Under the pieces are notes generated by a model. The model made no database searches, was not told the DNA's origin, and saw nothing but the letters and a program-made list of their open reading frames with translations. From Candidatus Methanoperedens sp. (GTDB lineage: Archaea; Halobacteriota; Methanosarcinia; Methanosarcinales; Methanoperedenaceae): a stretch of DNA of 32,000 bases. How positions within the stretch are numbered: position 1 is the first letter of the stretch; each line of letters starts with the position of its first letter. Positions 12,972 through 31,927 of the stretch are shown here, piece by piece. The position numbers and the translations under genes are program-made. Location of the stretch: the NCBI GenBank assembly GCA_027460535.1, contig JAPZAR010000021.1:30001-62000 (forward strand), in the 5' to 3' direction.

Positions 12972-15416
12972 TTAACTTTCCATCCTCTCCCTCAACCCCC
13001 TCGCCTTCTCACCCAGCTCTTTCCGCCCATATATCCCCGCGATCAATTCCACAGCTTCAAGCGCCCTCGCAGCCTGGTCCAGGTAATTCAGAACATCCCC
13101 GGCATACGCATAAATCCCATACTGCTTCGTAAGCTCAGCGATAATGCCATCAGGCGACAATCCTTCAGCGCACAGTTCTATGACCCTCTCCGAGAATTTC
13201 CTCTCAGCGCAACCGCAGTACGGTGCATCCTTGCACCTGCAGGCCATGAACTCACGCGCAAAATCAAGCATGGTGCGACGGAGGTTCTCTTTCAGCTTTG
13301 AAAATTCGGCAGAGGAGAAAACGATATCAAGCCCGGCGCCGAACACGCGGGTCGGGATATCAGTCCCAAGGGCATCCGATAACTGTGAGGCATACTTGAA
13401 ATACACAGCGTCCAGGGTTCCAAGCCCCGTAACAATATCAAGCGGTTCCCGTCCTTCAAGCACGGCGTCCTTGATCAGGAAAGTCTGCTCAACACTTAGG
13501 AAATGAGACGCTACGATTTTTCCAAGTTTTGTGGGAGAATATCCTGAATCCTTTTTTTCTATGAACCCGTATTCTCTCAGTTTCCCGAGCAAATAATCTA
13601 GATCTCCCCTGCCCAGCAGTAAATCATCTAATTTCCTGATATCTGAAAGTTTACGCGCTACCATGATATTGGAAAGGGTCTCTTCAAGCAATTCATCGTC
13701 CCCATACTCCACGCCAAAATGCTCAAGTTCACCGCGCAGGAGCCTGAAAGCTATCTCGTCCTCGGTATCCCCTTTTCCGAACCTCTTTTCGGGGTCTGCG
13801 AGTAGCACCACTATCCCGCGATCATGGTAATCCGGTCTCCCCGCTCGGCCCAGCATCTGCTGGAACTCCCGCACCGTGAGCCACTCTATTCCCATGGCGA
13901 GGGATTCAAAAATTACCTGCGAAGCCGGGAAATCAACACCTGCTGCAAGCGCCGCCGTCGTCACGACCACTGGCAATTCTCCTTTCCCGAATCGCTCTTC
14001 CACTTTCTTCCGCTCATTGTATGAAAGCCCGGCATGGTAAGGCAGCGCTTTTATGCCAAGCCCGTCTGCCAGCATGTGGCAATTGCGGCGTGAATTGGTA
14101 AATACAATGGTCTGACCGAGGAAGCCCTTTGATGATCTCTTGCTATATTCCTGCCTCGCAAGTCGCTCTATCAAGCGCATCTTCTCATATTCCGGCGCGA
14201 AGATGAGGTGCCGGTCGATCGGCACTGGCCGTTCTTCAAATTCGATTAACGCCGCACCCAGTTTTTCGGCCAGCCACCCAGGTTTTCCTACAGTGGCTGA
14301 GAGATAAATGAACTGTGCGTCTGGAGAAGTAAATTTCAAACGTGCAATAAGACCATCAAGCCTGTGCCCTCTTTCTTTGTCCTCGAGCATATGCACCTCG
14401 TCTATTACCACGGTACCGATATTCCCAAGCTGTCCGCCTGACCTGAGGATGTAATCGATCCCTTCATAGGTTCCCACTATTATGTCTGAAGATAGTGAAG
14501 TCCGGACACCTTTTGCACCGCCTGTTATCCTGCTCGTTCCAACGCGAAGAGACGTTGTGGCAACGGAAGAATATCGCCTTGTGAACTGTTCATACTTCTG
14601 GTTCGCAAGCGCCACAAGCGGAACAAGGAACAGCATCTTACCTTTTTTATTCAGGATGTTCTGGAGACCGGCAAGCTCCCCGACAAGCGTTTTTCCGGTA
14701 GCGGTAGCTGAAACGATCAACTGGTTTTTTCTTTCAAGTAATCCTGCCTCGACCGAAAGCGCCTGGACTGGCAGCAGTTCTTCCAGCTGGCGAAGGAGGA
14801 TCTTTTTGAGTTCTTCGTGGACAGGCAGGTCTTTTACTTTGATATGGCGTTCAACCCTGCTTGCCTCTATCGTATCGAATCTCGTCAGGCCGGAATCCAG
14901 TTTTTCCGGGCTGAGCATCGCAAGTACCCTGTCAAGGTCTCTGCCCTGGAGCAATAACTTGATTAGCCTGTCCTGGCCGTGCCTGCCAAGTTTCGCGGTT
15001 TTTGCTTCCCGCATTAGTTCTTTTATTGCGCATTCTTCACACACATGTTCATTGTGAAATCGGATAGGATTGCCGTCTATCGTGGTATATTTGCCGGCAA
15101 GGATACATAGCCGGCATGTGTTCGTATAGCCATAGTCCAGCTGGTATGCTGCCAGCATTTCTTTGAACCCTGCTTCCGATCCCTCATTCCCTTCAGCGAT
15201 AAGGATTTTATCTGCAAGGCGCAGGAGTTCGATGAGTTCCTCTGGCGCCCTGTATTCTTCTTTCTCTCCCTGCCTTATCCTGAATTTACCGACACGTGCT
15301 CCTTTTGGGGTCTTTTTTAATGTGAGGATGCCCTGGAAAACAGGTTCTTTTGCATTGTCTTTAATTGGCAGAACGAGGATTTTTGAATTTTGCGGGTGAA
15401 TGATCACAGAAAGCAT
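12972..15416 (-). CDS. SF2 DEAD/DEAH-box helicase, Ski2-like, with an N-terminal 4-Cys zinc finger (ASH-Ski2-like)
   Basis: Helicase motifs are I ATATGKT, II DEVH, III SAT and VI QMLGRAGRP. The N-terminal region has CRLC...CEEC and the C-terminal region has CRCKDAPYCGC. The N-terminal CxxC...CxxC arrangement matches the archaeal ASH-Ski2 group description. Confidence 0.8.
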   Translation of the reverse strand: MLSVIIHPQNSKILVLPIKDNAKEPVFQGILTLKKTPKGARVGKFRIRQGEKEEYRAPEELIELLRLADKILIAEGNEGSEAGFKEMLAAYQLDYGYTNTCRLCILAGKYTTIDGNPIRFHNEHVCEECAIKELMREAKTAKLGRHGQDRLIKLLLQGRDLDRVLAMLSPEKLDSGLTRFDTIEASRVERHIKVKDLPVHEELKKILLRQLEELLPVQALSVEAGLLERKNQLIVSATATGKTLVGELAGLQNILNKKGKMLFLVPLVALANQKYEQFTRRYSSVATTSLRVGTSRITGGAKGVRTSLSSDIIVGTYEGIDYILRSGGQLGNIGTVVIDEVHMLEDKERGHRLDGLIARLKFTSPDAQFIYLSATVGKPGWLAEKLGAALIEFEERPVPIDRHLIFAPEYEKMRLIERLARQEYSKRSSKGFLGQTIVFTNSRRNCHMLADGLGIKALPYHAGLSYNERKKVEERFGKGELPVVVTTAALAAGVDFPASQVIFESLAMGIEWLTVREFQQMLGRAGRPDYHDRGIVVLLADPEKRFGKGDTEDEIAFRLLRGELEHFGVEYGDDELLEETLSNIMVARKLSDIRKLDDLLLGRGDLDYLLGKLREYGFIEKKDSGYSPTKLGKIVASHFLSVEQTFLIKDAVLEGREPLDIVTGLGTLDAVYFKYASQLSDALGTDIPTRVFGAGLDIVFSSAEFSKLKENLRRTMLDFAREFMACRCKDAPYCGCAERKFSERVIELCAEGLSPDGIIAELTKQYGIYAYAGDVLNYLDQAARALEAVELIAGIYGRKELGEKARGLRERMES

Positions 15417-15545: not shown

Positions 15546-18500
15546 CTAATATTCTACCTTCAAGCTCCCTATATCGGTCATCAACTCCAACAGCACAATG
15601 CCAGATGGTGTCACTTTCTGCTCCTTTTTCCCTTCAATCTTAACACTTATCTCGGTTTGATCTTTTTTCCCGCTAAACTTTGCCTTGGCATCGAAGAGCT
15701 TCTTAACTTCGATCTCTTGCTCCAATTCATTGAGCAAGCCCTTCTCCTCAGTGTATTCCACCTGATCTCTGTTCATTGCTATGTTCGAAACTGTTCCAGC
15801 GTTGTACTGTGTGCTGATGACCTCTATTTCAGCTTCCTTGCCCTCTTTCTTGTGTCTTAAGATGAGTGTGAGCGAGTTGTTTGCAATATCCCTGAGGGCG
15901 TACTGTCTCCGTTCCCAGGCTTTTTCGTTCTGGTCTTTTTGCTCTTTCTTATCTTTATTTTCTTTCTTCGAAGGCAATATTATATAGTTTGTATCATTTC
16001 CAGTCTCGACGTTGTATACCCTGAAATCTTTCAAGGAGATGTCGAATCTTATTGCTGCTTCTGGAGGTGTCTTGTCAATTTTGATCGTTTGGCTCTTAAT
16101 CAATTCTACGTTGCCCGCATTATCTGTTGAGCAATAGTAAATCGTTGATATCCCTTCGCTGCTTATGTTGAACGGGGCAGTATATCGAATCCAGGTTGCA
16201 TTATCCAGGCTATATTCAATCCAGTTCACGCCCGAACCACCTAGATTGTCCGTTGCCGTTAGATTCATCCGGACATCAGAAATGTACCAACCGTTATTGC
16301 CAATGCTTCCAGATAATACAGCAGTTGTTATTGGAGATACGGTATCAGAAGTGGCTATTTGTGGAATAGATGGGCCACCGTCGTCTATGATTATGCCATT
16401 GGCTGTAAGGTCATCGTCTCCTAATCCTCCATCTGTGAGTGTTATTGTTATGGTGTTGCCATTGATGCTGCTGGGAATAGTGTACCAATGAGTATTGTGG
16501 TTTTCTCCATATTTCCAGTAAGTTGTACCATCTGGCAGGTATTCTGGAAATGTCATTGTGAGAGTTATGCTGCCGCCAAGATTTATGCCTGTAATGTTGA
16601 ATCTGAAAAGACCATAATAGAGATTTGCCTCAATTGGAGGTTGTTCAAGTATGGAATTCGGATCCACAGCTATCATATCTTGAATAGTGCCTGCGCTTGA
16701 TTGAAGGAACACGGTGCCTTTTCCGGTGATAGATTCAATATGGAATCCGGATGGTTCTATCACTGATAAACTTACACTTCCACTAACTTCTCCATTTCTT
16801 GCAGTTATTGTTGTTATTCCTGGTGAAAATGTATATGCAAAAAATATACCTTGACCCATATCAAATGTTCCCAAGCTTGAATTGCTGGAACTCCAAGTTA
16901 CTATAGAGGTGATGTCATTCCCATTTTGATCCTTCGCAGTAAAGGAAATTGTATTACCCATAGCAACTGATGGCATAGCTGGTGAAATAGTTATAGTTGT
17001 GATTGATGATGAAACAGTCACATTTACACCTTCTGTTAAACTACCACTTCGTGCTGTTATTATTGCTGTTCCTGTTCCAGTTGCTGTAAACTTTGCTCCT
17101 GAATAAAATGTGTCTGTAATCGGTTCAATTGTGCCCACTGTTGGATCACTGATGATCCACGTTACAGGTAATTCCATGATAACTCCAAATTGATCTTTGG
17201 GCATAGCGAAAAAATCCCAATTATAACCCGCAAAAATCACTCCATAATCTTGAACCTCTTCGGTGGTGGGAGAAAGTGTTAAAGATGTTAATTTTTGTTC
17301 ATACGGCATTTTAAATGATACCAACGGATATCTATCAACATCAGAACCCTCTTGAATATTATAACTTGAATCACATATGTTATTATCGTCTGAATCAATA
17401 CAACCTTCAAAATTTTCATCAAAATTACTATAATGATTACCTATATTCTCGTAATCCCACTGATTCTGACCATTGCTATAAACTAGATCCTTTAAGAAAT
17501 TATTCTGATAAATTACATTGTTATTGCTGGAATCCAAATAGATACCTGCCTCATTTGCCGATAATATATTTTTAAATATCATATTCTCTATTGAATTATA
17601 AAAATAAATACCGTCACCATTTGAAATTACAATATTTTCTGATATAAGGTTATAATCAGAGCCGTCCAAAAAAATACCTTCACGATTATTCGAGTAAACA
17701 TTCCCGTTGATGAGGTTATTTCTTGAAGATTTGAGGTAAACTCCATTTTGGTTTGAAAATATATCATTATTTGTAATCTTGTTATTATTCGAATTTACCT
17801 TAATTCCTGCATAATTGAAATCATAATTAACTTCCGAGTTTGTAACTCCAAATCCTTCAAGTGTTATTCCATTTGAGGATATTGTAATTGGACTACCAAA
17901 CCCCCCAGCATCTACTATTGGCTTCCCACTGCCGGTATCAACTCCTTTTAATATAAGTTCAGGAATATTCACGTCCGCGTTTTCATGATAAGTACCGCTG
18001 TTAACAAGGATTGTATCCCCAGGATATGCTGCATCGAGAGCATCTTGGATTCTGGTATAATCACAATCACTGGGGCAAACTGTGCGCGTAATTGGAGTTG
18101 GTATCACAGGTGTTGTGGGTAATACCAATGAAACCAATGGATACCTATCCACATTATTTGGATCCAAAGGATTGTTTCCGCTTGGAATATTATAGCTTGA
18201 ATCACATATGTTATTGGAATCAGAATCAATACAACCTTCAAAATTTTCATCAAAATTGCTGTAATGATTTCCAATAATTCCATTATCCCAATTATTATTT
18301 GATAACCCATAGTTGTCAATGGCGTTTTCACTGTTACCAAAAAAATTGTTCTGATAGATATTATTGCTATTGCTTAGTAATATTATGCCCCCCATCTGGC
18401 AACATTCCAATCTTCTTAAACCATTTAGATAGACATTATTACCCGTAATGATATTTCCTTCTTGTGAATATGCACCTCCTCCAACAAAAAGTCCCATATT

Positions 18501-21473
18501 ATTTAAATAAATATTATTGTTTGAAATAATATTATTGTTAGGACTTGAATGAGTTAAAATGCCAATACCATTGGAGAAAACATTATTATTTGAAATGTAG
18601 TTATTTGTTGTAGCTATATTTATTCCTGCATTGAAGTCAGCTTCGTATTCACCACCGCTATAAAAAAATAATTCACCACCACTATTGCTTGCATTAAATC
18701 CTTCAAGAGTAATTCCATTAGCAGAAAGTTTGATCGCACTACCAGTGCCACCAGCATCTACAATCGGCATTGTACCATCTGTTTTCTGACCCCGAAGGGT
18801 GAGTTGTTTGTTGATATCCACATTTTCTTGATACGTTCCACTATGCACTAAAATCATATCACCAATGTTCGCTGCATCAATAGCCGCTTGAATTCCGTTG
18901 TAATTGCAATTATTTTGGCAGACAGTAAGTGTCGCAGGATTCGGATTGGGCGACCCTATTACAAGATTTATGTTTGTCGTTTTTGTCTCTCCACCACCTG
19001 TTCCAACAATGACTACTGTATAAGATCCTCGTGGTGTTGTATTTGATGTAGTGATAGTTACTCTAGTAGCTTCATTAAGCATTGCCGGATTCTGAGAAAA
19101 TTTACAGGAAGTTCCTTCCGGTAATCCGGAACAGCTAAGCATAACAGGTGTAACAAAACTTCCTTGACTGATGAGATCAATTAATAGTGACATAAAACCA
19201 CCAATTGCAACAGACTGAGATGGTGATTCATAAAGTGAAAGAGTGAACGTTGGATCGTTGTCCAGAACTTGGTAATATTCCTCGTGCACCTCATTTCCAT
19301 TAGCATCTTTCCATGTCTTAGAAAGATCATAACTATCATAACCCCAACTATACCAGCTACCTGAACCATCATCTGCGGTAACATACATTGGAAATGAACT
19401 TAATCTGTCACTTGGACTGGTTAACTTTTTCGACATCCATGTATATTCTTGTTGGGAATCACAATATGAACTATCTTTATTTGGATCATAAGAGTAATCC
19501 CTTGTGCAGTTATACTTTATACTTGAATCATAATCCCTGCGGTCGCCGATATTTAAAATTTTATGTCCGGGGAGTTCAGGTGTCGCTCCAAATGACCACT
19601 GATAATAAGTTTCTCCGACTAATAAATAATATTCATCATATCCATCGCCGTCATAGTCTTTTATATGCCAGTTATTAGCACAATAAGGGCTATTAACTAC
19701 AGTTTTAAGATAGTAGCCCACATCAGTATTAGAGAGATCTTTCGAAAAATCCACACAATATGAAGGAATGCCCTGAATACTTGATCTTGTACTGAACTGC
19801 CAGCTATATGGTGACTGCAAATTATTATTTGCCAAATCCTTAACATTTGTTCCCACCGAAACAATATACGTTGCGTCATAATCAAGGTCTGAACTTGGAG
19901 TATAAGTCATGGTGTTGCTGTTCCAGTAAAAGCTTCCTGCAGTTGAAGGAGATATTGAAAAAGACGATTCGGCAGATGCATGATCTATTGCTTCACTGAA
20001 GGTGATGGTTATTGATGTATTTGCAGGAATATTGCTACCAGTCGGAGTATTATAAGTGATTGTCGGTGGAGTGGTGTCTGTTGGTGGAGGTTGTCCTAAC
20101 GATGCGCTAAAATCCATATGATCGCTATTATCAGCGGCATCGTTTGCCCAGTCGCTCCAGAAATAACCATTGTAAGCTCTTACATGCCAATGGTAATGCT
20201 TTCCATCAACTAAGCCCCCATTTATATATTCTGCAATTGAAGGTGTAATTTGAGAAGACTCTGGATTCGAAATAGTCTTTTCAAGAACAATCTTGGTGCC
20301 GTCAGTTTTCAAGCCGCTATCCTCCCAAACTCTAATTTGATAAGCTTTGATTTTATTTAAGGATATGTCACTTAAAGGAGGCCACCATCGATACGTGGGT
20401 GTTAAAGTATTGACATGAGAATCCATCTCTGGCTCTTGTAATATTGGTGTTTTTGGTATAAGATTTATCCTTCCTTTCCCATCCAATAGTGTTTCTTTTT
20501 CATCCTCGGTCAGGACGTCGATTGCTGTATCTTTCAGGATAGTTTCTGCTGTTGGTGCATTATTTCCCATCCTCTGTAAAAGTAAAAGTGCTCCAGCAAC
20601 ATGGGGCGCAGCAAAAGAACTTCCAGATATATAATTTTCATAGCCATTTTCCGAAGTATTTAATGTGTATATACTCTTACCTGGTGCTGCAAAATCTGGT
20701 TTCGCATAATCTGGGGGTACGATTTTAGGATTTTGTGGGCTGCCACCCAAAAATAAGTAATCATTAAAATCTTGAATAGAAGAGACACTAATTACCTTTA
20801 CACCAGTTGATGGTGATATAGGATACTTATCATCTTTATTTCCTGCTGCGGCAACGAAACTTGTATCACTGTCTACTTTATCTGATGCATACTGAGCGAT
20901 CTCGTCATAACAGCTACCCTGAAAAGAAGGGCAAATTGAGGTGACAATAACATTTGCACCATTATCTACGGCAAAATTAATTCCAGCTTCATAATCAATA
21001 AGACCCGTAATACCCTCAGCAGGCTTTATAATAATGAATTTTGCTTTTGGTGCAATTTCCCAAATAATCCCTGCAATTCCAGTTCCATGTCCTTCACTAT
21101 CATCAATACCGTAAATTGCATATGGACCACGAGAGGCAATTATATTTATTTTCCAATCAACAGGATTATTTTTACCGTCCATATTCACAATTGGGTGATC
21201 TATATCTATCCCTGAATCAATTATGGCTACAATTTTGCCCTCACCATAATTTCCCCATCCCCTTTCATGCATTTTGTCAAACCCAATATTTTCAATTCCC
21301 CAATTTTCTTTATTCATACAATCCCAATATGATTTTGGGTCGTTGTTTATTAAATCTGTACCGCATCTTATATCAGCAGCACTCGCTCCGCCAGCCAGCA
21401 ATAAGATTGCCAGTATTGTTATCCCAAAAACTATCCTAAGGACACGCTCTTTATTCTTTTTATTCTTAAACAT
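15546..21473 (-). CDS. Giant secreted S8 subtilisin-like protease fused to SbsA-type Ig, two NosD/PbH1 beta-helix modules, Big_2 Ig-like domains and further beta-rich domains
   Basis: I start at the ATG at 21473, which has GGTGG 5 nt upstream; the track's 21482 start is a GTG. The signal peptide is ILLLAGGASA|AD. The catalytic triad contexts are IIDSGIDIDHP, GHGTGIAG and SGSSFAAPHVAG. The beta-helix repeat regions are Asn-rich (NNN.I..N). Big_2-like segment: ITISPAMPSVAMGNTISFTAKDQNGNDIT. No C-terminal membrane anchor is visible. Confidence 0.9.
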   Translation of the reverse strand: MFKNKKNKERVLRIVFGITILAILLLAGGASAADIRCGTDLINNDPKSYWDCMNKENWGIENIGFDKMHERGWGNYGEGKIVAIIDSGIDIDHPIVNMDGKNNPVDWKINIIASRGPYAIYGIDDSEGHGTGIAGIIWEIAPKAKFIIIKPAEGITGLIDYEAGINFAVDNGANVIVTSICPSFQGSCYDEIAQYASDKVDSDTSFVAAAGNKDDKYPISPSTGVKVISVSSIQDFNDYLFLGGSPQNPKIVPPDYAKPDFAAPGKSIYTLNTSENGYENYISGSSFAAPHVAGALLLLQRMGNNAPTAETILKDTAIDVLTEDEKETLLDGKGRINLIPKTPILQEPEMDSHVNTLTPTYRWWPPLSDISLNKIKAYQIRVWEDSGLKTDGTKIVLEKTISNPESSQITPSIAEYINGGLVDGKHYHWHVRAYNGYFWSDWANDAADNSDHMDFSASLGQPPPTDTTPPTITYNTPTGSNIPANTSITITFSEAIDHASAESSFSISPSTAGSFYWNSNTMTYTPSSDLDYDATYIVSVGTNVKDLANNNLQSPYSWQFSTRSSIQGIPSYCVDFSKDLSNTDVGYYLKTVVNSPYCANNWHIKDYDGDGYDEYYLLVGETYYQWSFGATPELPGHKILNIGDRRDYDSSIKYNCTRDYSYDPNKDSSYCDSQQEYTWMSKKLTSPSDRLSSFPMYVTADDGSGSWYSWGYDSYDLSKTWKDANGNEVHEEYYQVLDNDPTFTLSLYESPSQSVAIGGFMSLLIDLISQGSFVTPVMLSCSGLPEGTSCKFSQNPAMLNEATRVTITTSNTTPRGSYTVVIVGTGGGETKTTNINLVIGSPNPNPATLTVCQNNCNYNGIQAAIDAANIGDMILVHSGTYQENVDINKQLTLRGQKTDGTMPIVDAGGTGSAIKLSANGITLEGFNASNSGGELFFYSGGEYEADFNAGINIATTNNYISNNNVFSNGIGILTHSSPNNNIISNNNIYLNNMGLFVGGGAYSQEGNIITGNNVYLNGLRRLECCQMGGIILLSNSNNIYQNNFFGNSENAIDNYGLSNNNWDNGIIGNHYSNFDENFEGCIDSDSNNICDSSYNIPSGNNPLDPNNVDRYPLVSLVLPTTPVIPTPITRTVCPSDCDYTRIQDALDAAYPGDTILVNSGTYHENADVNIPELILKGVDTGSGKPIVDAGGFGSPITISSNGITLEGFGVTNSEVNYDFNYAGIKVNSNNNKITNNDIFSNQNGVYLKSSRNNLINGNVYSNNREGIFLDGSDYNLISENIVISNGDGIYFYNSIENMIFKNILSANEAGIYLDSSNNNVIYQNNFLKDLVYSNGQNQWDYENIGNHYSNFDENFEGCIDSDDNNICDSSYNIQEGSDVDRYPLVSFKMPYEQKLTSLTLSPTTEEVQDYGVIFAGYNWDFFAMPKDQFGVIMELPVTWIISDPTVGTIEPITDTFYSGAKFTATGTGTAIITARSGSLTEGVNVTVSSSITTITISPAMPSVAMGNTISFTAKDQNGNDITSIVTWSSSNSSLGTFDMGQGIFFAYTFSPGITTITARNGEVSGSVSLSVIEPSGFHIESITGKGTVFLQSSAGTIQDMIAVDPNSILEQPPIEANLYYGLFRFNITGINLGGSITLTMTFPEYLPDGTTYWKYGENHNTHWYTIPSSINGNTITITLTDGGLGDDDLTANGIIIDDGGPSIPQIATSDTVSPITTAVLSGSIGNNGWYISDVRMNLTATDNLGGSGVNWIEYSLDNATWIRYTAPFNISSEGISTIYYCSTDNAGNVELIKSQTIKIDKTPPEAAIRFDISLKDFRVYNVETGNDTNYIILPSKKENKDKKEQKDQNEKAWERRQYALRDIANNSLTLILRHKKEGKEAEIEVISTQYNAGTVSNIAMNRDQVEYTEEKGLLNELEQEIEVKKLFDAKAKFSGKKDQTEISVKIEGKKEQKVTPSGIVLLELMTDIGSLKVEY
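17316..18092 (-). repeat. Intragenic tandem module 2 (NosD-like beta-helix module, ~259 aa)
   Basis: Runs from ITRTVCPSDCDYTRIQDALDAA...PIVDAGGFGSPITISSNGITLEGF to NHYSNFDENFEGCIDSDDNNICDSSYNI...VDRYPLVS. It is collinear with module 1. Confidence 0.85.
18120..18938 (-). repeat. Intragenic tandem module 1 (NosD-like beta-helix module, ~273 aa)
   Basis: Runs from ATLTVCQNNCNYNGIQAAIDAA...PIVDAGGTGSAIKLSANGITLEGF to NHYSNFDENFEGCIDSDSNNICDSSYNI...VDRYPLVS. An ~88-nt block (18182-18269) is roughly 90% identical by eye to 17352-17439. Confidence 0.85.
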
Positions 21474-21846
21474 CTTTCCCACCTATCCATTGATGCATGA
21501 TTACTTCTCTTTGAGCAAGTCACTCATCTTATGTTACCCGTGTAAATCGTAATTCTATAAATAAATTGTGAAATTAATGGCTCTTCTATATTTCAACCCT
21601 AATATCTCGTTCTATAGCAACAAAGAGATTGATTTTTGACGATGTCTGTATCAGAATATACTTTTGCTCACGGAAGTCGTTATTATAGCTGTTATCTGTA
21701 TAGCCAGCATCATCGCCTAATTTCATCATCGAGATTTCCATTTTTCCATTTCTCTCAGTATGATAGAGTTAATAGAAAATGAAAAAGATTATCATTTCAG
21801 ACGAAGTGTAAGATATACGAACCAAGTTCGGACATAGATGGGTTGA

Positions 21847-24688: not shown

Positions 24689-24937
24689 ATGAAAGCGGAA
24701 AAATTGCTTGAACGCATAACTCTTAACCCAGATGTTATGACAGGAAAACCTGTAATCAAGGGGACAAGACTTACGGTGCAGTTTATCGTGGGATTATTAG
24801 CGCATGGCGCTTCTGTGGAGGAAATCCTTGAAGAATACAAAGGATTAACCAGGGAAGATATAAGAGCATGTTTGCTTTTTGCAACAGAATCCCTTGAAAA
24901 CATTACATTTATGCCTTTGACAGCAGAGGCTTGTTAG
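24689..24937 (+). CDS. DUF433 domain protein (antitoxin-like HTH), embedded between hsdS and hsdR
   Basis: ITLNPDVMTGKPVIKGTRLTVQFIVGLLAHGASVEEILEEYKGLTREDIRACLLFA is a full-length match to the DUF433 pattern as I remember it. Confidence 0.8.
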   Translation: MKAEKLLERITLNPDVMTGKPVIKGTRLTVQFIVGLLAHGASVEEILEEYKGLTREDIRACLLFATESLENITFMPLTAEAC

Positions 24938-24959: not shown

Positions 24960-27890
24960 ATGACAGCGCCCAAACCAACAGAACATAAAAGCGTCCAAGC
25001 TCGTATACTAAAATATGCACAGGAAATCGGCTGGAGGTATGTCTCGCAAAGCGAAGCCGAGCAGCGCAGAGGTTTTGATCCATCCGGCGCTTCTCCGAGA
25101 GAGAAAGCCAAAAACGCTTCCCGCTTTTTTACCGATACTTTATTTGAAAAGGTAAAAGACTTTAATCCAAAGTTCAAAGACAGCAAAGAAGAACTCCTTC
25201 GCAAACTCAATTTGCCTTTGCCAACCATCGCGGGCAACCGGGATTTTTTACAGCATCTTCAGGGAGAAAAAACGTTCTTCAGCAAAGAGGAAAACCGTGA
25301 ATTTAACCTTGTGCTGATAAACTATGGCGAGCCAGACAAAAATGTGTATGAAGTAACCGAAGAATATTATCTTTTCAATGGGCAGTATGCCAATCGGGAG
25401 GATGTTGCATTTCTCATCAATGGCATTCCGGTTCTTGTAATCGAATGTAAAAACGCCACCAAAGACGAAGCCATTGCAATAGGTATAGACCAGATCAGAC
25501 GCTATCACCGTGAGACGCCGGAGTTTTTTTGTCCAGAGCAGATTTTCACAGCCACTGAAAGCATTGGTTTTTCGTATGGCGTAACATGGAACCTCATCAG
25601 AAGAAATATTTTTAACTGGAAAGAAGAAGAAATCGGCAATCTGGAAGTAAAAATTAAATCCTTCTGCGGCAGGCAGAATATTCTTGATTACTTGAAAAAA
25701 TTCATTATTTTTGCAGAGCAAAATGAAGAGCTGAATAAATACATTTTAGCTCAACACCAGAAAACAGCAGTAACAAAAGTATTAGAACGGGCAATCGACC
25801 CGAAAAAGACAAGAGGTTTAGTATGGCATACGCAGGGAAGCGGCAAAACCTTTACTATGATAAAAATAGCTGAACTGCTGTTTAAAGCCCCCGAAGCCGA
25901 AAAACCCACCATTCTCTTGTTGATCGACCGCAATGAACTGGAAGACCAGATGGCCAGAAATCTTGAATCGTTGGGTGTAAAAAATGTAGTACAGGCAGAG
26001 CATATAAGAGACTTGCAAAAATTGCTGAAAAATGATTATAGAGGAATAATAGTCAGTATGATGCATAAATTCCAGGATATGCCTGCTGATGTCAATCTTC
26101 GCAAAAACATTTATGTGCTGATTGATGAAGCGCACCGAACCACAGGAGGAGATTTAGGAACATATCTGATGGCTGCCGTCCCGAATGCTACTTTAATAGG
26201 ATTTACAGGCACGCCGGTTGATAAAACAGTTCATGGTAAAGGAACATTCAAGACCTTTGGCCTTGAAGACGAATCTGGTTATCTGCATAAATATTCCATT
26301 GCAGAAAGCATTGAAGATTATACAACATTGCCCCTGTTTTATGGGATGGCTCCAAATGAGCTTTTAGTCCCCAGGGATATTTTGGAAAAAGAGTTTTTGA
26401 ACCTGGCGGAAGCTTATGGGGTAAGCGACATCGAAGAATTGAATAAAATCCTGGAACGTGCTGTTAATACCCGCAACTTTTTGAAAGGAAAGGAACGGGT
26501 AGAAAAGGTGGCTGAATACGTGGCAAGTCATTACAAAGAAAATGTCGAGCCAATGGGCTATAAGGCATTTTTAGTTGGAGTTGACCGTCCAGCATGTGCC
26601 ATGTATAAAAAGGCGTTAGATAAGTTTCTGCCCACGGAATATTCGGAAGTAGTTTACACCGGCAACAACAACGACACAGAAGACCTAAAGAAATATCACA
26701 TTGACACTAAAAAAGAAAAGGAAATTAGAAAGAAGTTCACCAAAATCGGAGAACTGCCCAAGATCCTGATCGTTACGGAAAAACTTTTGACAGGTTTTGA
26801 TGCACCGATTTTGTACGCCATGTATCTGGACAAACCAATGCGTGACCATACCCTTCTTCAAGCCATTGCAAGGGTAAACAGACCATATGAGAACGAAGAA
26901 AAGGATATGAAAAAGCCTCATGGTTTTGTCCTGGACTTTGTAGGCATATTTGACAAACTTGAAAAAGCACTCGCATTTGATAGCAAAGAAATCAATTCGA
27001 TAATAAAGGATATTCAACTGCTGAAACACCTGTTCAAGGCAAAGATGGAAGAAAAAGTTCCTCCTTACTTACAACTGATTAAATTTGGTTTTAACGACAA
27101 AGACACAGATAATCTCATTGCATACTTTAGAGATAAATCCAAAAGAAAAGAATTTTTCAAATTATACAAAGAGGTGGAAATGCTATATGAAATCATTTCA
27201 CCTGATAAATTCTTAAGACCATACATTGACAATTACACTACGCTTTCTGCTATTTACCAAATCGTAAGAAATGCCTATGCAAAAAGAGTCCAGGTTGACA
27301 GGGAGTTCCAGAGAAAAACAAATGAATTGATCCAGAATAAAATAGGCATGAGCAATTTGCAGCAGGTTAATGAATTCTTTGAGATTAACGAAGAAACGAT
27401 TAAAAAAATACAAGATACTCAGAAAAATGACAATACACGGGTAATCAACTTAGTAAAGAGTATTGAAAGAATTGCTGAAGAAGAATCTGATGACCCATTT
27501 CTAATTGGTTTGCAGGAAAGAGCTGCCCAAGTAGAAGAAAGCTATGAGGACAGGCAAATTACCACGCAGGAAGCATTAGAAGAAATCAGAAAGATTTATG
27601 AAGATGACATAAAACGGAAAAAAGAACAGGTAGAGAAGGGCTTTGATGGCCTAACTTTCTTCATTTACAGAACACTGCTCGACAAAGATTTCAAAAAGGC
27701 GGATGAAATAACCAAGCAAATTAAAGCAGAGTTTGTTAATAATCCGAACTGGAAATCAAGCGAAAAGGAATTGAGAGATCTGAGAAAAGGAACATATTAC
27801 GCTGTGCTTAGCGAAGAAGAGAATATTGACAGAGCTGCTGCAATTGTAGAAGATTTATTTAATCAGTTATTCAAAGCCTACAACTTATGA
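24960..27890 (+). CDS. hsdR: Type I restriction-modification system, restriction (helicase/endonuclease) subunit
   Basis: Motif I is VWHTQGSGKTFTM, motif II is LIDEAHRTTGG, followed by GFTGTP and QAIARVNRP. I prefer the ATG at 24960 (MTAPKP) to the TTG at 24948 used by the ORF track. Confidence 0.9.
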   Translation: MTAPKPTEHKSVQARILKYAQEIGWRYVSQSEAEQRRGFDPSGASPREKAKNASRFFTDTLFEKVKDFNPKFKDSKEELLRKLNLPLPTIAGNRDFLQHLQGEKTFFSKEENREFNLVLINYGEPDKNVYEVTEEYYLFNGQYANREDVAFLINGIPVLVIECKNATKDEAIAIGIDQIRRYHRETPEFFCPEQIFTATESIGFSYGVTWNLIRRNIFNWKEEEIGNLEVKIKSFCGRQNILDYLKKFIIFAEQNEELNKYILAQHQKTAVTKVLERAIDPKKTRGLVWHTQGSGKTFTMIKIAELLFKAPEAEKPTILLLIDRNELEDQMARNLESLGVKNVVQAEHIRDLQKLLKNDYRGIIVSMMHKFQDMPADVNLRKNIYVLIDEAHRTTGGDLGTYLMAAVPNATLIGFTGTPVDKTVHGKGTFKTFGLEDESGYLHKYSIAESIEDYTTLPLFYGMAPNELLVPRDILEKEFLNLAEAYGVSDIEELNKILERAVNTRNFLKGKERVEKVAEYVASHYKENVEPMGYKAFLVGVDRPACAMYKKALDKFLPTEYSEVVYTGNNNDTEDLKKYHIDTKKEKEIRKKFTKIGELPKILIVTEKLLTGFDAPILYAMYLDKPMRDHTLLQAIARVNRPYENEEKDMKKPHGFVLDFVGIFDKLEKALAFDSKEINSIIKDIQLLKHLFKAKMEEKVPPYLQLIKFGFNDKDTDNLIAYFRDKSKRKEFFKLYKEVEMLYEIISPDKFLRPYIDNYTTLSAIYQIVRNAYAKRVQVDREFQRKTNELIQNKIGMSNLQQVNEFFEINEETIKKIQDTQKNDNTRVINLVKSIERIAEEESDDPFLIGLQERAAQVEESYEDRQITTQEALEEIRKIYEDDIKRKKEQVEKGFDGLTFFIYRTLLDKDFKKADEITKQIKAEFVNNPNWKSSEKELRDLRKGTYYAVLSEEENIDRAAAIVEDLFNQLFKAYNL

Positions 27891-28213
27891 TTATGAGTAA
27901 ATGGAACGATAAATCTGAATTCAAGGCAAGAGTAAAAGAGTTTGCCGGAAAAATGGATATTGAAGTAAAAGCACTTGCTATCAGACCTATGACAAACAAA
28001 TGGGCTTCATGTTCTACAGATGGTAATTTGAATTTCAATAAAGAACTTCTGGACATGGACAAAGAAATTGGTGACTACGTAATTGTGCATGAATTGTTGC
28101 ATTTCAAGGTTCCCAATCATAGTAAACTTTGGAAAAGCTTAATGACTGCTTACCTGGGCGACTATGAGAAGTTAGAAAAGAAATTGAATAAAATAAAAAT
28201 TGGAGAAAAATAG
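27887..28213 (+). CDS. DUF45 / COG1451-type (M48-like, YgjP-like) zinc metallopeptidase, short form
   Basis: WASCSTDGNLNFNKELL...DYVIVHELLHFKVPNHSKLW contains the HExxH motif in the DUF45 context. The start overlaps the hsdR stop (ATGA). Confidence 0.75.
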   Translation: MIMSKWNDKSEFKARVKEFAGKMDIEVKALAIRPMTNKWASCSTDGNLNFNKELLDMDKEIGDYVIVHELLHFKVPNHSKLWKSLMTAYLGDYEKLEKKLNKIKIGEK

Positions 28214-28216
28214 AAA

Positions 28217-28290
28217 CTGCCGCCCCCATCTTGTGCCAACCAGAGCCGGACAGGTGGGGAGAAGATATCGCAAACAGTGAATCGCATAAC
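28217..28290 (+). repeat. GC-rich boundary repeat, copy R1 (short variant lacking the central core)
   Basis: It shares CCGCCCCCATCTTG with R2 and GAGCCGGACAGGTGGGGAGAAGATATCGCAAA with the right arms of R2-R4. It begins 4 nt after the DUF45 stop. Confidence 0.6.
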
Positions 28291-28520
28291 GGTATAATTT
28301 CTTGATAATATGTTCTTTCAAGATACATAAAAATAAATACTTTAGACAATATATAGATATAATAGATAAACAGAACTCATTGGAGTTCATAAACCTCAAG
28401 GGCTAAATTGACAGGAATTGAGAACGATATCTTATTAAGGAAGATGTTGCATTTCGTAGAAAAACACATAGACGATTTACCAGTAGCTACAAAGGATGTT
28501 AAGAAATTGAGGATTTAAAA

Positions 28521-29180
28521 ATGAAGAGATTATTATATATTCCAAATGAATCTTTGCCAAAAATTTCAAAATTTTTATCATTAGAAAAAAAATCTATTGA
28601 AACTTTTATCAATATTTTAATTGATTCCGAGAAAAAAAGTATTGTTGATTTATATCTTTCTATCATGAATGAAATGAATGTTTCAGATGATGATGCAGCA
28701 GCAATCTTTTCCACCTATAAATATTTGTTATTTGTTTTGGAAGAAAACAATTTAAAATTTTCCGACCTTATTCCAGAAACAAAATATATTTTGGAAACTT
28801 CCAAGATTCCAGATTATAACAAAATAAGCAAGAATGTAGATGTTAATTCAGAACATTTTAATAATTTATTTTCTGCTGGAAGCATTGAAGAGAAATTTGC
28901 AAAAAAAGAATTTTTATCTTCCGAAACATTCAACTCAGTGGTGGATATCCATTCTATTTGTGATATACGACCTTTTTTTAATGAAGAAAGAAATGAAATT
29001 TTGGACTTTCTAAATAGTATATATATCGAATTTACGGTTCAGGATTATGCGGATAATATTAAAATAATTCCACTGTCTTTTGACGATGAAGCTTTTGAAG
29101 ACCTAATCAAAGAAATTGATAATATTAAAAAGAAAAAAGAGGTTATCAATAAGAAAATATCCAAATGGAGAAAGATTTGA
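28521..29180 (+). CDS. Hypothetical protein A of the orphan operon (219 aa; acidic, predicted helical, Lys-rich C-terminal tail)
   Basis: GAGG lies 8 nt upstream of the ATG. The ORF is uninterrupted in very AT-rich DNA, where random ORFs this long are unlikely. Its stop abuts the next start (TGAATG). I recognise no motif. Confidence 0.7.
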   Translation: MKRLLYIPNESLPKISKFLSLEKKSIETFINILIDSEKKSIVDLYLSIMNEMNVSDDDAAAIFSTYKYLLFVLEENNLKFSDLIPETKYILETSKIPDYNKISKNVDVNSEHFNNLFSAGSIEEKFAKKEFLSSETFNSVVDIHSICDIRPFFNEERNEILDFLNSIYIEFTVQDYADNIKIIPLSFDDEAFEDLIKEIDNIKKKKEVINKKISKWRKI

Positions 29181-29687
29181 ATGTTTAATACCCAAATTAT
29201 TAATAGAAAGTTTTCAATCATCCGTGATATAAATTCATATCGGGCATCTCCAGCAAAATACAAACAAATGATACATTCAGGGAAATCTCACTTGGATAAT
29301 GTTTATGATCCTTTAAATCCTGTAATAAGAATTGATAGAGGTAAAATTCGTTCTGGACGACATGCTGAAATTCATAATCGAAGGGCTCGACCTATTGATT
29401 TCAAGAAAAAAAAGTTAAGAGTCAGGGTTTGCCCGGATATTAATAACTTAACCATTGGTGATTCCTTCAATGATTTTTATTCTCCAGTCAATTTTAATAT
29501 AAAAAAATATATAACAAAATTAGAAACAAAACATTCAGTTGATGATATAACCACTTTGGGCAGTACAACCCATGAAGAAAATTTAGAATATGATGTTTTT
29601 ATTCAGATGCCTCCCATAAAAAAATGGACCGCACGGGTAAAAATAAAAAGTATAGAAAACGCAAAAATGAATATAGTGGAACCATAA
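29181..29687 (+). CDS. Hypothetical protein B of the orphan operon (168 aa; strongly basic central patch)
   Basis: The start is immediately adjacent to the stop of A. It contains an Arg/Lys-rich stretch, RIDRGKIRSGRHAEIHNRRARPIDFKKKKLRVRV. I recognise no motif. Confidence 0.65.
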   Translation: MFNTQIINRKFSIIRDINSYRASPAKYKQMIHSGKSHLDNVYDPLNPVIRIDRGKIRSGRHAEIHNRRARPIDFKKKKLRVRVCPDINNLTIGDSFNDFYSPVNFNIKKYITKLETKHSVDDITTLGSTTHEENLEYDVFIQMPPIKKWTARVKIKSIENAKMNIVEP

Positions 29688-29693
29688 TGATAT

Positions 29694-30224
29694 ATGGCGA
29701 TTGAATATCCTTGGTACGAGGTTGTAAATTGTGATGCTGATTTAATGCAAGGTGACTTTATAAAAGGTTGTCCTATAATTATTCCCCCTTCAGAGATACA
29801 AGAGGAAGAAGAATTTGAAGCTCGTATTCTTAAATATAATGTAATCATTTTGAGCCAATCCTGCGATATTGCAAATAAGAAAATCGATCTGGTTCTTCTT
29901 TGTCCATTCTGGCCCCTTGAAGATTTAGAGAAACAAAGTACTTTTTTTAAAAGTAGCGATGGGAAAGAAGAATTAAGACGTGGAAATGTTACAGGATATC
30001 ATTTATTAAATAAATGTGGGCTAAAAGGGTTCAAAATGGCTTATCAGGTCGTTGATTTTCGTAATATTTATAGTGTTTCTTTAGAATTTCTTTCTGATCT
30101 GACTATAAAGAAAGGTGAAAGATTGCGTTTATTACCCCCTTATAGAGAGCATCTATCTCAAAGCTTTGCAAGATTCTTTATGAGAGTAGGCCTCCCTGTA
30201 GATATACCTGCATTTAAAAAATAA
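29694..30224 (+). CDS. Hypothetical protein C of the orphan operon (176 aa; QGD...SQSCD...RVGLP pattern)
   Basis: It starts 6 nt after the stop of B. Conserved-looking blocks are LMQGDFIKGCPIII, NVIILSQSCDIA and LLPPYREHLSQSFARFFMRVGLP. The resemblance to MazF/PemK-like barrels is only an impression. Confidence 0.65.
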   Translation: MAIEYPWYEVVNCDADLMQGDFIKGCPIIIPPSEIQEEEEFEARILKYNVIILSQSCDIANKKIDLVLLCPFWPLEDLEKQSTFFKSSDGKEELRRGNVTGYHLLNKCGLKGFKMAYQVVDFRNIYSVSLEFLSDLTIKKGERLRLLPPYREHLSQSFARFFMRVGLPVDIPAFKK

Positions 30225-30228
30225 GAAA

Positions 30229-30255
30229 CAACATGCTTTTGTTGTACGCATGTTG
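30229..30255 (+). terminator. Perfect 8-bp stem hairpin directly after the orphan operon
   Basis: CAACATGC (30229-30236) and GCATGTTG (30248-30255) are exact inverted repeats around a T-rich loop (ttttgttgtac). The hairpin starts 5 nt after the stop codon of protein C. Confidence 0.35.
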
Positions 30256-30327: not shown

Positions 30328-30472
30328 GGTTGCTCCGCCCTCATCACCCCGCCCCCCATCTTGCTCCCTACTCCCTCCCTGCTTGCAGACCCGGTGCCTG
30401 CGGCATGCGCGGAGCCCGGAAAGGTGCGGAGAACACGATCAAATGCGGTGCGCCCAACATGAAATGGTTGCC
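30328..30472 (+). repeat. GC-rich boundary repeat, copy R2 (longest copy)
   Basis: It contains CCGGTGCCTGCGGCATGCG, which has 1 mismatch to the R3/R4 19-mer. It also contains AGGTGCGGAGAACACGATCAAA (1 mismatch to R4) and ends AAATGCGGTGCGCCCAAC plus the mini-hairpin CAACATGAAATGGTTG. G+C is 42/60 in the line starting at 30361. Confidence 0.8.
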
Positions 30473-30993: not shown

Positions 30994-31017
30994 GTATAAA
31001 CTGAAGCAATTCATCAG

Positions 31018-31136
31018 ATGCGCCTCACCCCGCCCCCTCCCCGTTTGCTGATCCGGTGCGTGCGGCATGCGGGGAGCCAGGACAGGTGGAGAACATATCT
31101 CGACCAAATGCGGGCGCCCAACTTTGAAAGGTTACA
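31018..31136 (+). repeat. GC-rich boundary repeat, copy R3
   Basis: It contains CCGGTGCGTGCGGCATGCG (31053-31071), identical to R4. It ends AAATGCGGGCGCCCAAC plus the mini-hairpin CAACTTTGAAAGGTTA. Confidence 0.8.
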
Positions 31137-31716: not shown

Positions 31717-31815
31717 AATTGAAATAATTGTTTTAATTGATATTAAAGTTATTTATGTTTCAAAGCATTTCATTACCCTGACAGATTCGTTTTCACACCT
31801 GGTCTGTTTGGGATA

Positions 31816-31927
31816 GTGTTGCGCCCACCTCCCCGCTGGCAGACCCGGTGCGTGCGGCATGCGTGGGAACAGGTGCGGGGAACACGATCAAAATGTGAAC
31901 TTTAATATATGTTTAAACATATGTTTA
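31816..31927 (+). repeat. GC-rich boundary repeat, copy R4
   Basis: GTGTTGCGCCCACCTCCCCGC...CCGGTGCGTGCGGCATGCG (31845-31863)...AGGTGCGGGGAACACGATCAAA. Its right end is replaced or extended by an AT-rich palindrome. Confidence 0.75.
31907..31922. promoter_or_regulatory. Perfect 16-nt palindrome immediately upstream of the VapB-like gene (candidate operator)
   Basis: ATATGTTTAAACATAT is its own reverse complement. ATATGTTTA recurs directly at 31919-31927. The palindrome ends 9 nt before the ATG at 31931. Confidence 0.4.

Follow-up and report, generated by a model that had tools for sequence, protein, structure and literature searches.

The DNA analysed here (the window) is a stretch of 32,000 nucleotides (nt) from Candidatus Methanoperedens sp. 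(GenBank assembly GCA_027460535.1, contig JAPZAR010000021.1, positions 30,001 to 62,000 of the forward strand), and the subject of this analysis is a trio of small genes within it, here called A, B and C (Table 1). The genes are packed head to tail: the stop codon of A abuts the start codon of B in the sequence TGAATG, and a gap of 6 nt separates B from C. A sequence-only reading of this DNA had reported three open reading frames (ORFs) of these sizes and with these junctions as well as a GAGG motif 8 nt in front of A, all of which proved to be exact. It had placed a perfect 8-bp hairpin 5 nt after C; the perfect arms are present (CAACATGC and GCATGTTG) and the first base lies 4 nt past the stop codon of C. 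As the host is an archaeon, bacterial rules may not apply to this hairpin as a terminator. The G+C content of the trio is 29.5% (A 25.5%, B 30.6%, C 33.7%), compared to 41.9% in the whole window and 38.9% in the neighbouring hsdR, and the earlier counts of 14/60 G+C in the line at position 28741 and 37/60 in the line at 13801 are likewise correct.

The trio is found elsewhere. Together with about 330 nt of upstream sequence it occupies another genomic site in further contigs of Methanoperedens (loci L009-L011; related loci are designated by L numbers throughout) with 91-96% nt identity to the window, and this site adjoins Trm112, DUF8150 and HD genes and is without the R-M (restriction-modification) system; A-B-C moves as one unit. 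Comparison of the window with the L009 copy yielded dN/dS ratios of 0.08 for A, 0.51 for B and 0.24 for C, and because of these values all three genes can be regarded as protein-coding and under purifying selection. B is the fastest-evolving gene of the trio, with a ratio of 0.48 for its N-terminal part.

The family of gene C is large. Clustering at 90% leaves 3,311 relatives of C and clustering at 50% identity leaves 2,218 clusters, all of them of about 172 amino acids (aa), and at least 565 genome loci carry a C relative. The family extends over archaea (Methanoperedens, Syntrophoarchaeum, Methanothrix, DPANN and Asgard archaea including Promethearchaeum syntrophicum MK-D1) and bacteria (Candidate Phyla Radiation (CPR), Chloroflexota, Planctomycetota, Chlorobium, Nitrospirota and others). 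The operon can therefore not be called an orphan, as had been done, since C has thousands of homologues, while A and B belong to small families. No Pfam or NCBIfam model matched A, B or C; for C also PADLOC returned nothing, its relatives are without a Pfam domain, and in PHROGs it is weakly linked to the unknown-function family phrog_4575 (E 4.5e-8). The AlphaFold2 model of C is confident, with a predicted local distance difference test (pLDDT) value of 85 and a predicted template modelling score (pTM) of 0.80. Among the top 50 Foldseek matches of this model in the PDB, 47 are toxins of the MazF/Kid/PemK type, including YdcE and MoxT (E 5e-4 to 0.09, probability close to 1, template modelling score normalised to the target 0.51-0.66), and in BFVD the two best matches and seven of the top 20 are named PemK-like. 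By this model, C is predicted to adopt the SH3-like barrel fold of the MazF/PemK type and is a probable toxin. The earlier impression of a barrel of the MazF/PemK/CcdB type thus holds at the level of the fold; membership at the level of sequence was not found. A C-terminal helix motif of the family (RxRLLPPYREHLSQAFARFFMRVGLP) is nearly unchanged from DPANN archaea to Planctomycetota.

For gene A, which the sequence-only reading could not place in any family, profile comparison through distant relatives indicates that it is a COMMD-like protein. The close family of A is small (16 clusters). A metagenome scan uncovered distant relatives of 23-31% identity, which score 21-49 bits on the hidden Markov model (HMM) A2 of the narrow family and share the invariant motif (I/V)CDIRPxF(D/N), the CDIRPxF part of which lies at residues 147-153 of A. 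A profile of this wider family, A7, built from 24 sequences of which half are from the sub-family of the window's A, matches chain 9q6a_A of a solved COMMD-like protein with an E-value of 3.7e-10 and 42.9 bits, covering positions 20-227 of the profile and 24-234 of the 240 residues of the chain. The link of A to this structure runs via the distant relatives, because hmmsearch with the narrow profile A2 alone found no PDB match at E≤10, and hhalign of A2 with the 9q6a sequence itself gave a collinear alignment of 187 columns with a weak E-value of 0.034. Five of 17 members of the A family reach 13.7-16.7 bits on the Pfam COMM_domain (PF07258), short of the cutoff of 22.4; each of these matches joins residues 166-202 to positions 28-64 of the 64-position profile. 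The window's A itself has no match to PF07258, A7 gave no significant match to human COMMD1 (an approximate sequence), and the only PADLOC match of gene A is a weak one to PDC-M45C (E 0.014).

The predicted architecture of A may be of the same kind, with a helical, HN-like N-terminal domain (residues 1-122) and a COMM-like C-terminal part; a COMM domain has three strands and a long helix. AlphaFold2 predicts residues 1-122 confidently as helical, gives residues 123-176 pLDDT values below 50, and places two strands and a 30-residue helix after residue 176. The top Foldseek matches of the model are COMMD chains including the bacterial COMMD-like protein, with weak scores (E 0.05-0.4). The poor quality of the monomer model may be due to the fact that COMM domains are obligate intertwined dimers (PMC13392464). 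The solved protein, MBK5214510 (PDB 9q6a/9q6c/9q6d), forms octameric and decameric rings (PMC13392464), and by homology A would be expected to form a ring of 8-10 subunits. No relatives of the solved protein were found in the PLSDB plasmids. Liu et al. (Nat Commun 2026, PMC13392464) list 361 COMMD-like proteins and state that the function of the prokaryotic ones is unknown, in agreement with a 2026 preprint; the sole context reported is a neighbourhood resembling a type VI secretion system in Myxococcota, and no predicted partners were found (PMC13392464).

Gene B consists of two parts. Full-length relatives of B number six, all in Methanoperedens. Its C-terminal tail of about 35 residues (NLEYDVFIQMPPIKKWTARVKIKSIENAKMNIVEP) shares 56% identity with that of the B protein of L004, and the N-terminal parts of the two are unrelated; the same is true for the N-terminal parts in the other loci headed by a TIGR04255 gene. 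Within a set of 77 non-redundant loci of the C family, an HMM of the tail is positive in 60 of 76, the remainder showing degenerate versions, and in 72 of 76 the upstream gene ends within 30 nt of C, with overlap or abutment in 26. Many loci, e.g., in Methanothrix, Planctomycetota and Chlorobium, consist of a short B (70-124 aa) and C only, arranged like a classical antitoxin-toxin pair. The converse pattern is seen at L111 and L114/L115, where the first ~150 residues of the corresponding protein B' align with residues 1-133 of B; for residues 1-151 of B' of L114 the identity is 33% (E 1e-11), and this similarity ends exactly at the sequence THEE, beyond which B' has a different, helical tail. 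Owing to these two patterns of exchange, the N-terminal part of B can be assigned to the first gene and the tail to the effector. This suggests that the tail may bind C. The very basic patch of B, which had been taken as a clue to nucleic-acid binding, sits in the fast-evolving part that is tied to A; the conserved and thus informative part is the tail. Fusions of B and C or other informative domain fusions were not seen among the long members of the C family.

The exchange affects the effector itself. In L111 and L114/L115 gene A is 64-77% identical to that of the window, but the third gene encodes an HNH endonuclease (25.5 bits on PF01844 at a cutoff of 21.4) and not C, and the helical tail of the preceding protein is 56% identical between L111 and L114. 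It can be argued that C acts as a destructive effector because an HNH nuclease takes its place.

The first gene is exchanged as well. In 39 of the 77 loci B is preceded by a protein of the TIGR04255 family (257 aa, E 1e-40); the first genes of L001 and L004 score about 138 bits on TIGR04255. Searches of the PDB with the TIGR04255 profile found no solved relative, and the family is not mentioned in the literature searched. A was considered as a divergent TIGR04255 protein and rejected, given the absence of an NCBIfam match and an hhalign probability between the two families of 0.14%. Directly 3' of C, three loci of the TIGR04255 type carry a gene for an AAA_15/AAA_21 (DUF2813, OLD-like) ATPase (L004 6730-7995, L092 8735-9922, L093 7371-8540), which might be a recurring partner or an independent gene for defence. 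A COMMD-like A occupies the first position in Methanoperedens, in a metagenome-assembled genome (MAG) of Methanosarcinales (L023) and in a Pacearchaeota MAG (L037).

Distant relatives of A with the CDIRPxF motif also lead other three-gene operons, in which the partner genes are unrelated; in metagenome loci at least three further operon types with such a COMMD-like gene in first place were seen (L129, L132, L133; L130, L135; L124, L126, L127). The partners are proteins X of about 270-285 aa and Y of about 190-204 aa in one type, and X2 of about 292-349 aa and Y2 of about 217-222 aa in another; Y2 has an SCAGFV motif and, by eye, looks NlpC/P60-like. In the third type the partner, of about 190 aa, has by eye a GNAT-like look. 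Pfam gave no family for these partners beyond one zf-CGNR match below threshold.

Upstream of A, a possible leader ORF had been described. It exists, and is what truncation has left of a fourth gene, L: the C-terminal half (IENDILLRKMLHFVEKHIDD), homologous to that of genes of 68-119 aa in L112-L115, L119 and L120, in which full-length L runs into the start of A. An in-frame TAA has removed the N-terminal half both in the window and in L009-L011. A pattern resembling a ribbon-helix-helix (RHH) regulator was seen in L by eye only, and neither Pfam nor PDB profiles supported it. The full four-gene version, with an L of 68 aa followed by A, B and C, is present in L112 (1-14663; ENA ERZ25039513 contig_1580), a contig with many small unannotated ORFs and a DUF3987 protein, which is probably a virus, a plasmid or another extrachromosomal element of a Methanoperedens-type host.

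Table 1. Position of the A-B-C trio, its parts and further features in the window.
Feature	Position	Strand	Remarks
Gene A	28521-29180	+	219 aa ORF
Gene B	29181-29687	+	168 aa ORF
B, N-terminal part	29181-29579	+	residues 1-133; basic, fast-evolving, specific to loci headed by A
B, C-terminal tail	29580-29687	+	residues 134-168 and stop codon; effector-specific peptide
Gene C	29694-30224	+	176 aa ORF
GAGG motif	28509-28512	+	Shine-Dalgarno-like, read from sequence
Hairpin	30229-30255	+	3' of C; arms 30229-30236 and 30248-30255, 11-nt loop
L remnant (leader ORF)	28408-28518 (TTG start) or 28444-28518	+	C-terminal half only
In-frame TAA	28390-28392		cuts off N-terminal half of L
Repeat R1	28205-28285	+	G+C-rich interspersed repeat, partial; aligned with R2-R4, about 20 central nt missing
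Repeat R2	30330-30470	+	G+C-rich interspersed repeat, full copy; bounds module downstream
Further repeat copy	31000-31125
Further repeat copy	31790-31905
YgjP-like gene	27887-28213		108 aa, overlaps hsdR stop
DUF433 gene	24689-24937		82 aa; coordinates converted from L005
1,978-aa ORF	15546-21482	-	Peptidase_S8, Big_5, NosD/beta-helix and Big_2 matches
Direct repeats in 1,978-aa ORF	17354-18296		about 830 nt

The trio lies between a Type I R-M operon and toxin-antitoxin (TA) pairs of the ParE/RelE type. An identical locus (L005) is found in the Candidatus Methanoperedens assembly GCA_027460495.1, and its called genes confirm this context, with hsdM, hsdS, DUF433, hsdR and a YgjP-like gene on the 5' side and two small TA-like pairs, one matching Pfam ParE_toxin, on the 3' side. 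Sampled neighbourhoods of C-family and A-type loci contain R-M systems (Type I, Eco57I/MmeI, CfrBI) and TA genes (HepT/MNT, HicAB, ParE) besides AbiEii, HEPN, nSTAND3, an OLD-like AAA_15 ATPase and transposases, and some of the neighbourhoods are ordinary. The description of the neighbourhood as defence-type is thereby borne out both here and in the relatives, in which R-M, TA, transposase and Abi-type genes are found. As for the neighbours themselves, the DUF433 gene interrupts the R-M operon between hsdS and hsdR, and the YgjP-like gene is a short form bearing the HExxH part, whose match to the metallopeptidase profile is confined to the C-terminal half (positions 113-206 of 207). Further upstream, the 1,978-aa ORF with its internal direct repeats probably encodes a giant surface protein. 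Rfam and tRNA scans of the window found nothing.

The G+C-rich repeat of about 120-140 nt (core CCCCTCCCCGnTTGCAGACCCGGTGCGTGCGGCATGCGnGGAGCCnGGACAGGTGGGGAGAACA) that bounds the trio occupies every gap between the cassettes, i.e., the R-M operon, A-B-C, the TA pair and the ParE pair. The trio had been described as bounded by two such repeats, R1 and R2; both are present and R1 is only a partial copy. Repeat copies flank the trio in other Methanoperedens contigs too (L009-L012): in L009-L011 a full copy stands at the position equivalent to R1 upstream of the trio, and in L012 a copy lies about 100 nt 3' of the C homologue. A tyrosine recombinase is encoded about 3 kb past the end of the window in the parent contig, and the layout of repeats and cassettes looks integron-like. 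The orientations of the cassettes in the array are mixed, and as single-stranded DNA the repeats fold no better than shuffled sequences (z +1.2 to -1.1).

Taken together, we put slightly better than even confidence in the explanation that A-B-C is a mobile, co-transcribed module of the TA/defence kind composed of three interchangeable parts, namely a toxin (C), an adaptor (B) and a scaffold (A). What the analysis establishes is the anatomy of the genes, purifying selection, the assignment of folds and families, the modular conservation of B, the exchange of the effector (MazF-fold for HNH) and of the first gene (COMMD-like for TIGR04255), and movement as a unit; the physical interactions of the parts, the toxicity of C, the trigger and the biological role are inferred. 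C would be the effector, most likely toxic when free, with nucleic-acid cleavage as a first guess for its activity, by a chemistry that would be non-canonical compared to MazF. The C-terminal ~35 residues of B would bind C and keep it inactive, similar to the tail of MazE on MazF, and the N-terminal ~130 residues would dock onto the ring of A, or onto the TIGR04255 protein in other lineages. The ring of A might act as a scaffold or sensor deciding whether B keeps C neutralised, and C would be set free once something triggers the module, for example infection by a virus, the element being lost, or B being degraded or remodelled. The module may serve antiviral defence, as in the defence or abortive-infection role proposed by the sequence-only reading, or the addiction of the host to the cassette array.

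Several findings weigh against this explanation, most of them concerning C. Of 60 diverse members of its family none matches PF02452 at E≤1, profile and sequence searches of the PDB sequences with C found no MazF match, and C as a MazF at the level of sequence was rejected, since hhalign of the 60-sequence alignment with four MazF/Kid sequences (approximate) yielded a probability of 0.9%. This non-significant alignment has 29 columns and covers MazF residues 31-54. The catalytic residues of E. coli MazF are R29 and T52, which could not be traced in C; Arg29 falls outside the alignment, and the region of Thr52 is opposite to non-conserved residues of C. The 60 members have invariant residues of their own (Q19, G20, C57, P149, E152; nearly invariant are W7, Y8, D21, Q55, D58, C70, G97, R143, R145, Y150, Q156 and R164). 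The mean identity of C across phyla is 61% (up to 88%) compared to 26-37% for B, which is unusually high, far above what is usual for toxins, and MazF-like folds can also act as non-nuclease binding modules, e.g., in CalpT. Moreover, no DNA-binding domain was found in B, B and its relatives being without a Pfam domain; L, the gene that might encode a regulator, is truncated in the window; the evidence from gene context comes from a sample of about ten loci; and only 13 loci with relatives were found among 2.9 million viral contigs (IMG/VR), relatives of C being absent from the PLSDB plasmids. The extreme conservation of C, the missing MazF signal at the profile level, the example of CalpT and a set of polar invariants that resembles an active site unlike that of MazF (Q19, D21, Q55, C57, D58, R143, R145, E152, R164) would also suit a protein that is no toxin at all. 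On this view the MazF-like barrel of C would belong to a conserved enzyme or a binding protein; a hydrolase or transferase dependent on Cys and a factor in RNA processing or regulation are examples. The process concerned would be a cellular one unrelated to conflict, in which B is the substrate of C, its partner or its regulator, and assembly would take place on A or the TIGR04255 protein. We regard this as rather improbable: the distribution of C from DPANN and Asgard archaea to CPR and Planctomycetota is patchy and horizontally mobile, its neighbours are of the kind found in defence islands, and a dedicated housekeeping enzyme would hardly be expected to give way to an HNH nuclease while A and the N-terminal part of B stay the same.

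A toxin is retained in the proposal of plain addiction by post-segregational killing, in which B and C form a type II TA pair that stabilises the repeat-bounded cassette array. A, or elsewhere the TIGR04255 protein, would then serve the antitoxin as an accessory chaperone or as its regulator, comparable to the SecB-like chaperones in toxin-antitoxin-chaperone (TAC) systems. Loci of B and C only exist, the module moves as a unit and sits in a repeat-separated array of TA cassettes with the tyrosine recombinase further along the contig, and one relative, that of L112, resides on a contig resembling a mobile element. The exchange of the effector behind a conserved partner, however, is more typical of defence systems, a SecB-like protein is absent, and the relatives are missing from sequenced plasmids and rare on viral contigs. 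We consider plain addiction unlikely, although a little less so than a non-toxic C; it shares the molecular layout of the three-part module favoured here and differs from it in the biological role only. As a last alternative, the three ORFs might be chance or decayed frames in foreign AT-rich DNA that have no current function, an idea that the low G+C content, the lack of matches to curated families and the truncated neighbouring gene L might suggest. The dN/dS ratios, the thousands of full-length homologues of C, its confident structure model and the conservation of the operon architecture in dozens of phyla effectively refute it, and we give it hardly any weight.

The favoured three-part module would be a candidate conflict system in archaea, where few are characterised. 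Within the databases and literature searched, the claim that it is undescribed is supported, as PADLOC, Pfam and NCBIfam hold no model of it and no literature linking its parts was found: the literature searched neither describes the module nor connects COMM domains to toxin-type operons. Its notable new component among modules of the TA/defence type is the COMMD-like protein, and the position of this protein as conserved first gene of operons with toxin-type effectors would provide the first functional context for prokaryotic COMMD-like proteins. C represents a large family lacking models, which ranges from Asgard and DPANN archaea to CPR and Planctomycetota and combines a predicted MazF-like fold with non-MazF invariants, and the modularity of B predicts interaction interfaces that may be used for designing swaps. 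More speculatively, it is possible, if doubtful, that prokaryotic COMMD-like rings in general are the regulatory hub of modular conflict systems, B docking on the ring and carrying an exchangeable toxin (MazF-fold, HNH or others). If this were true, a linker threading a COMMD ring would predate the eukaryotes, echoing CCDC22/CCDC93 on the COMMD ring of the Commander complex, and the ancestral task of COMMD proteins would have been the control of toxic effectors.

Compared with known systems, the pair of B and C resembles MazEF, Kid-Kis and PemIK. As in these, the effector has a predicted MazF/PemK barrel fold and its gene comes straight after that of a small partner, which it overlaps or from which a short gap separates it. 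MazE uses its C-terminal tail to bind MazF, and the conserved element of B is a C-terminal peptide as well. C differs by the missing PF02452 match, by its own invariants including Cys57, by its length (~175 aa vs ~110) and by a conservation across phyla far stronger than is usual for MazF toxins; B differs by the absence of an AbrB, RHH or other DNA-binding domain, and most C loci differ by a third gene, COMMD-like or TIGR04255, in front of the pair. In terms of type II TA systems in general, the gene order agrees, with an antitoxin-like B first, adjacent to and co-oriented with C, but B lacks the DNA-binding domain of an antitoxin. TAC and other three-gene TA systems share with the module the number of genes and a modular antitoxin whose extension meets the third protein. 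They differ from it in gene order and in the third protein, which here is COMMD-like or TIGR04255 and not SecB-like, and the extension tied to the third protein is C-terminal in TAC and N-terminal in B. The operons headed by TIGR04255 have the C family and the same B tail in common with the window (39 of 77 loci), and the window is set apart by an A that is no TIGR04255 protein.

With CBASS, retrons, Avs/NLR-like systems and the accessory effectors of type III CRISPR the module shares a conserved upstream part combined with swappable nuclease-type effectors, and it likewise adjoins R-M and TA genes; in contrast to them it has no signalling enzyme, reverse transcriptase, STAND ATPase or CARF/SAVED sensor. 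PADLOC-DB v2 contains no model for B, C, the TIGR04255 protein or the other relatives. Finally, the wider family of A is homologous to the solved COMMD-like protein over nearly its full length, and the model of A suggests a similar layout, with a helical N-terminal domain followed by a C-terminal part of beta-strands and a long helix. The COMMD-like proteins of the present loci differ from those described by Liu et al. (PMC13392464) in that their genes come first in compact operons encoding toxin-like effectors.

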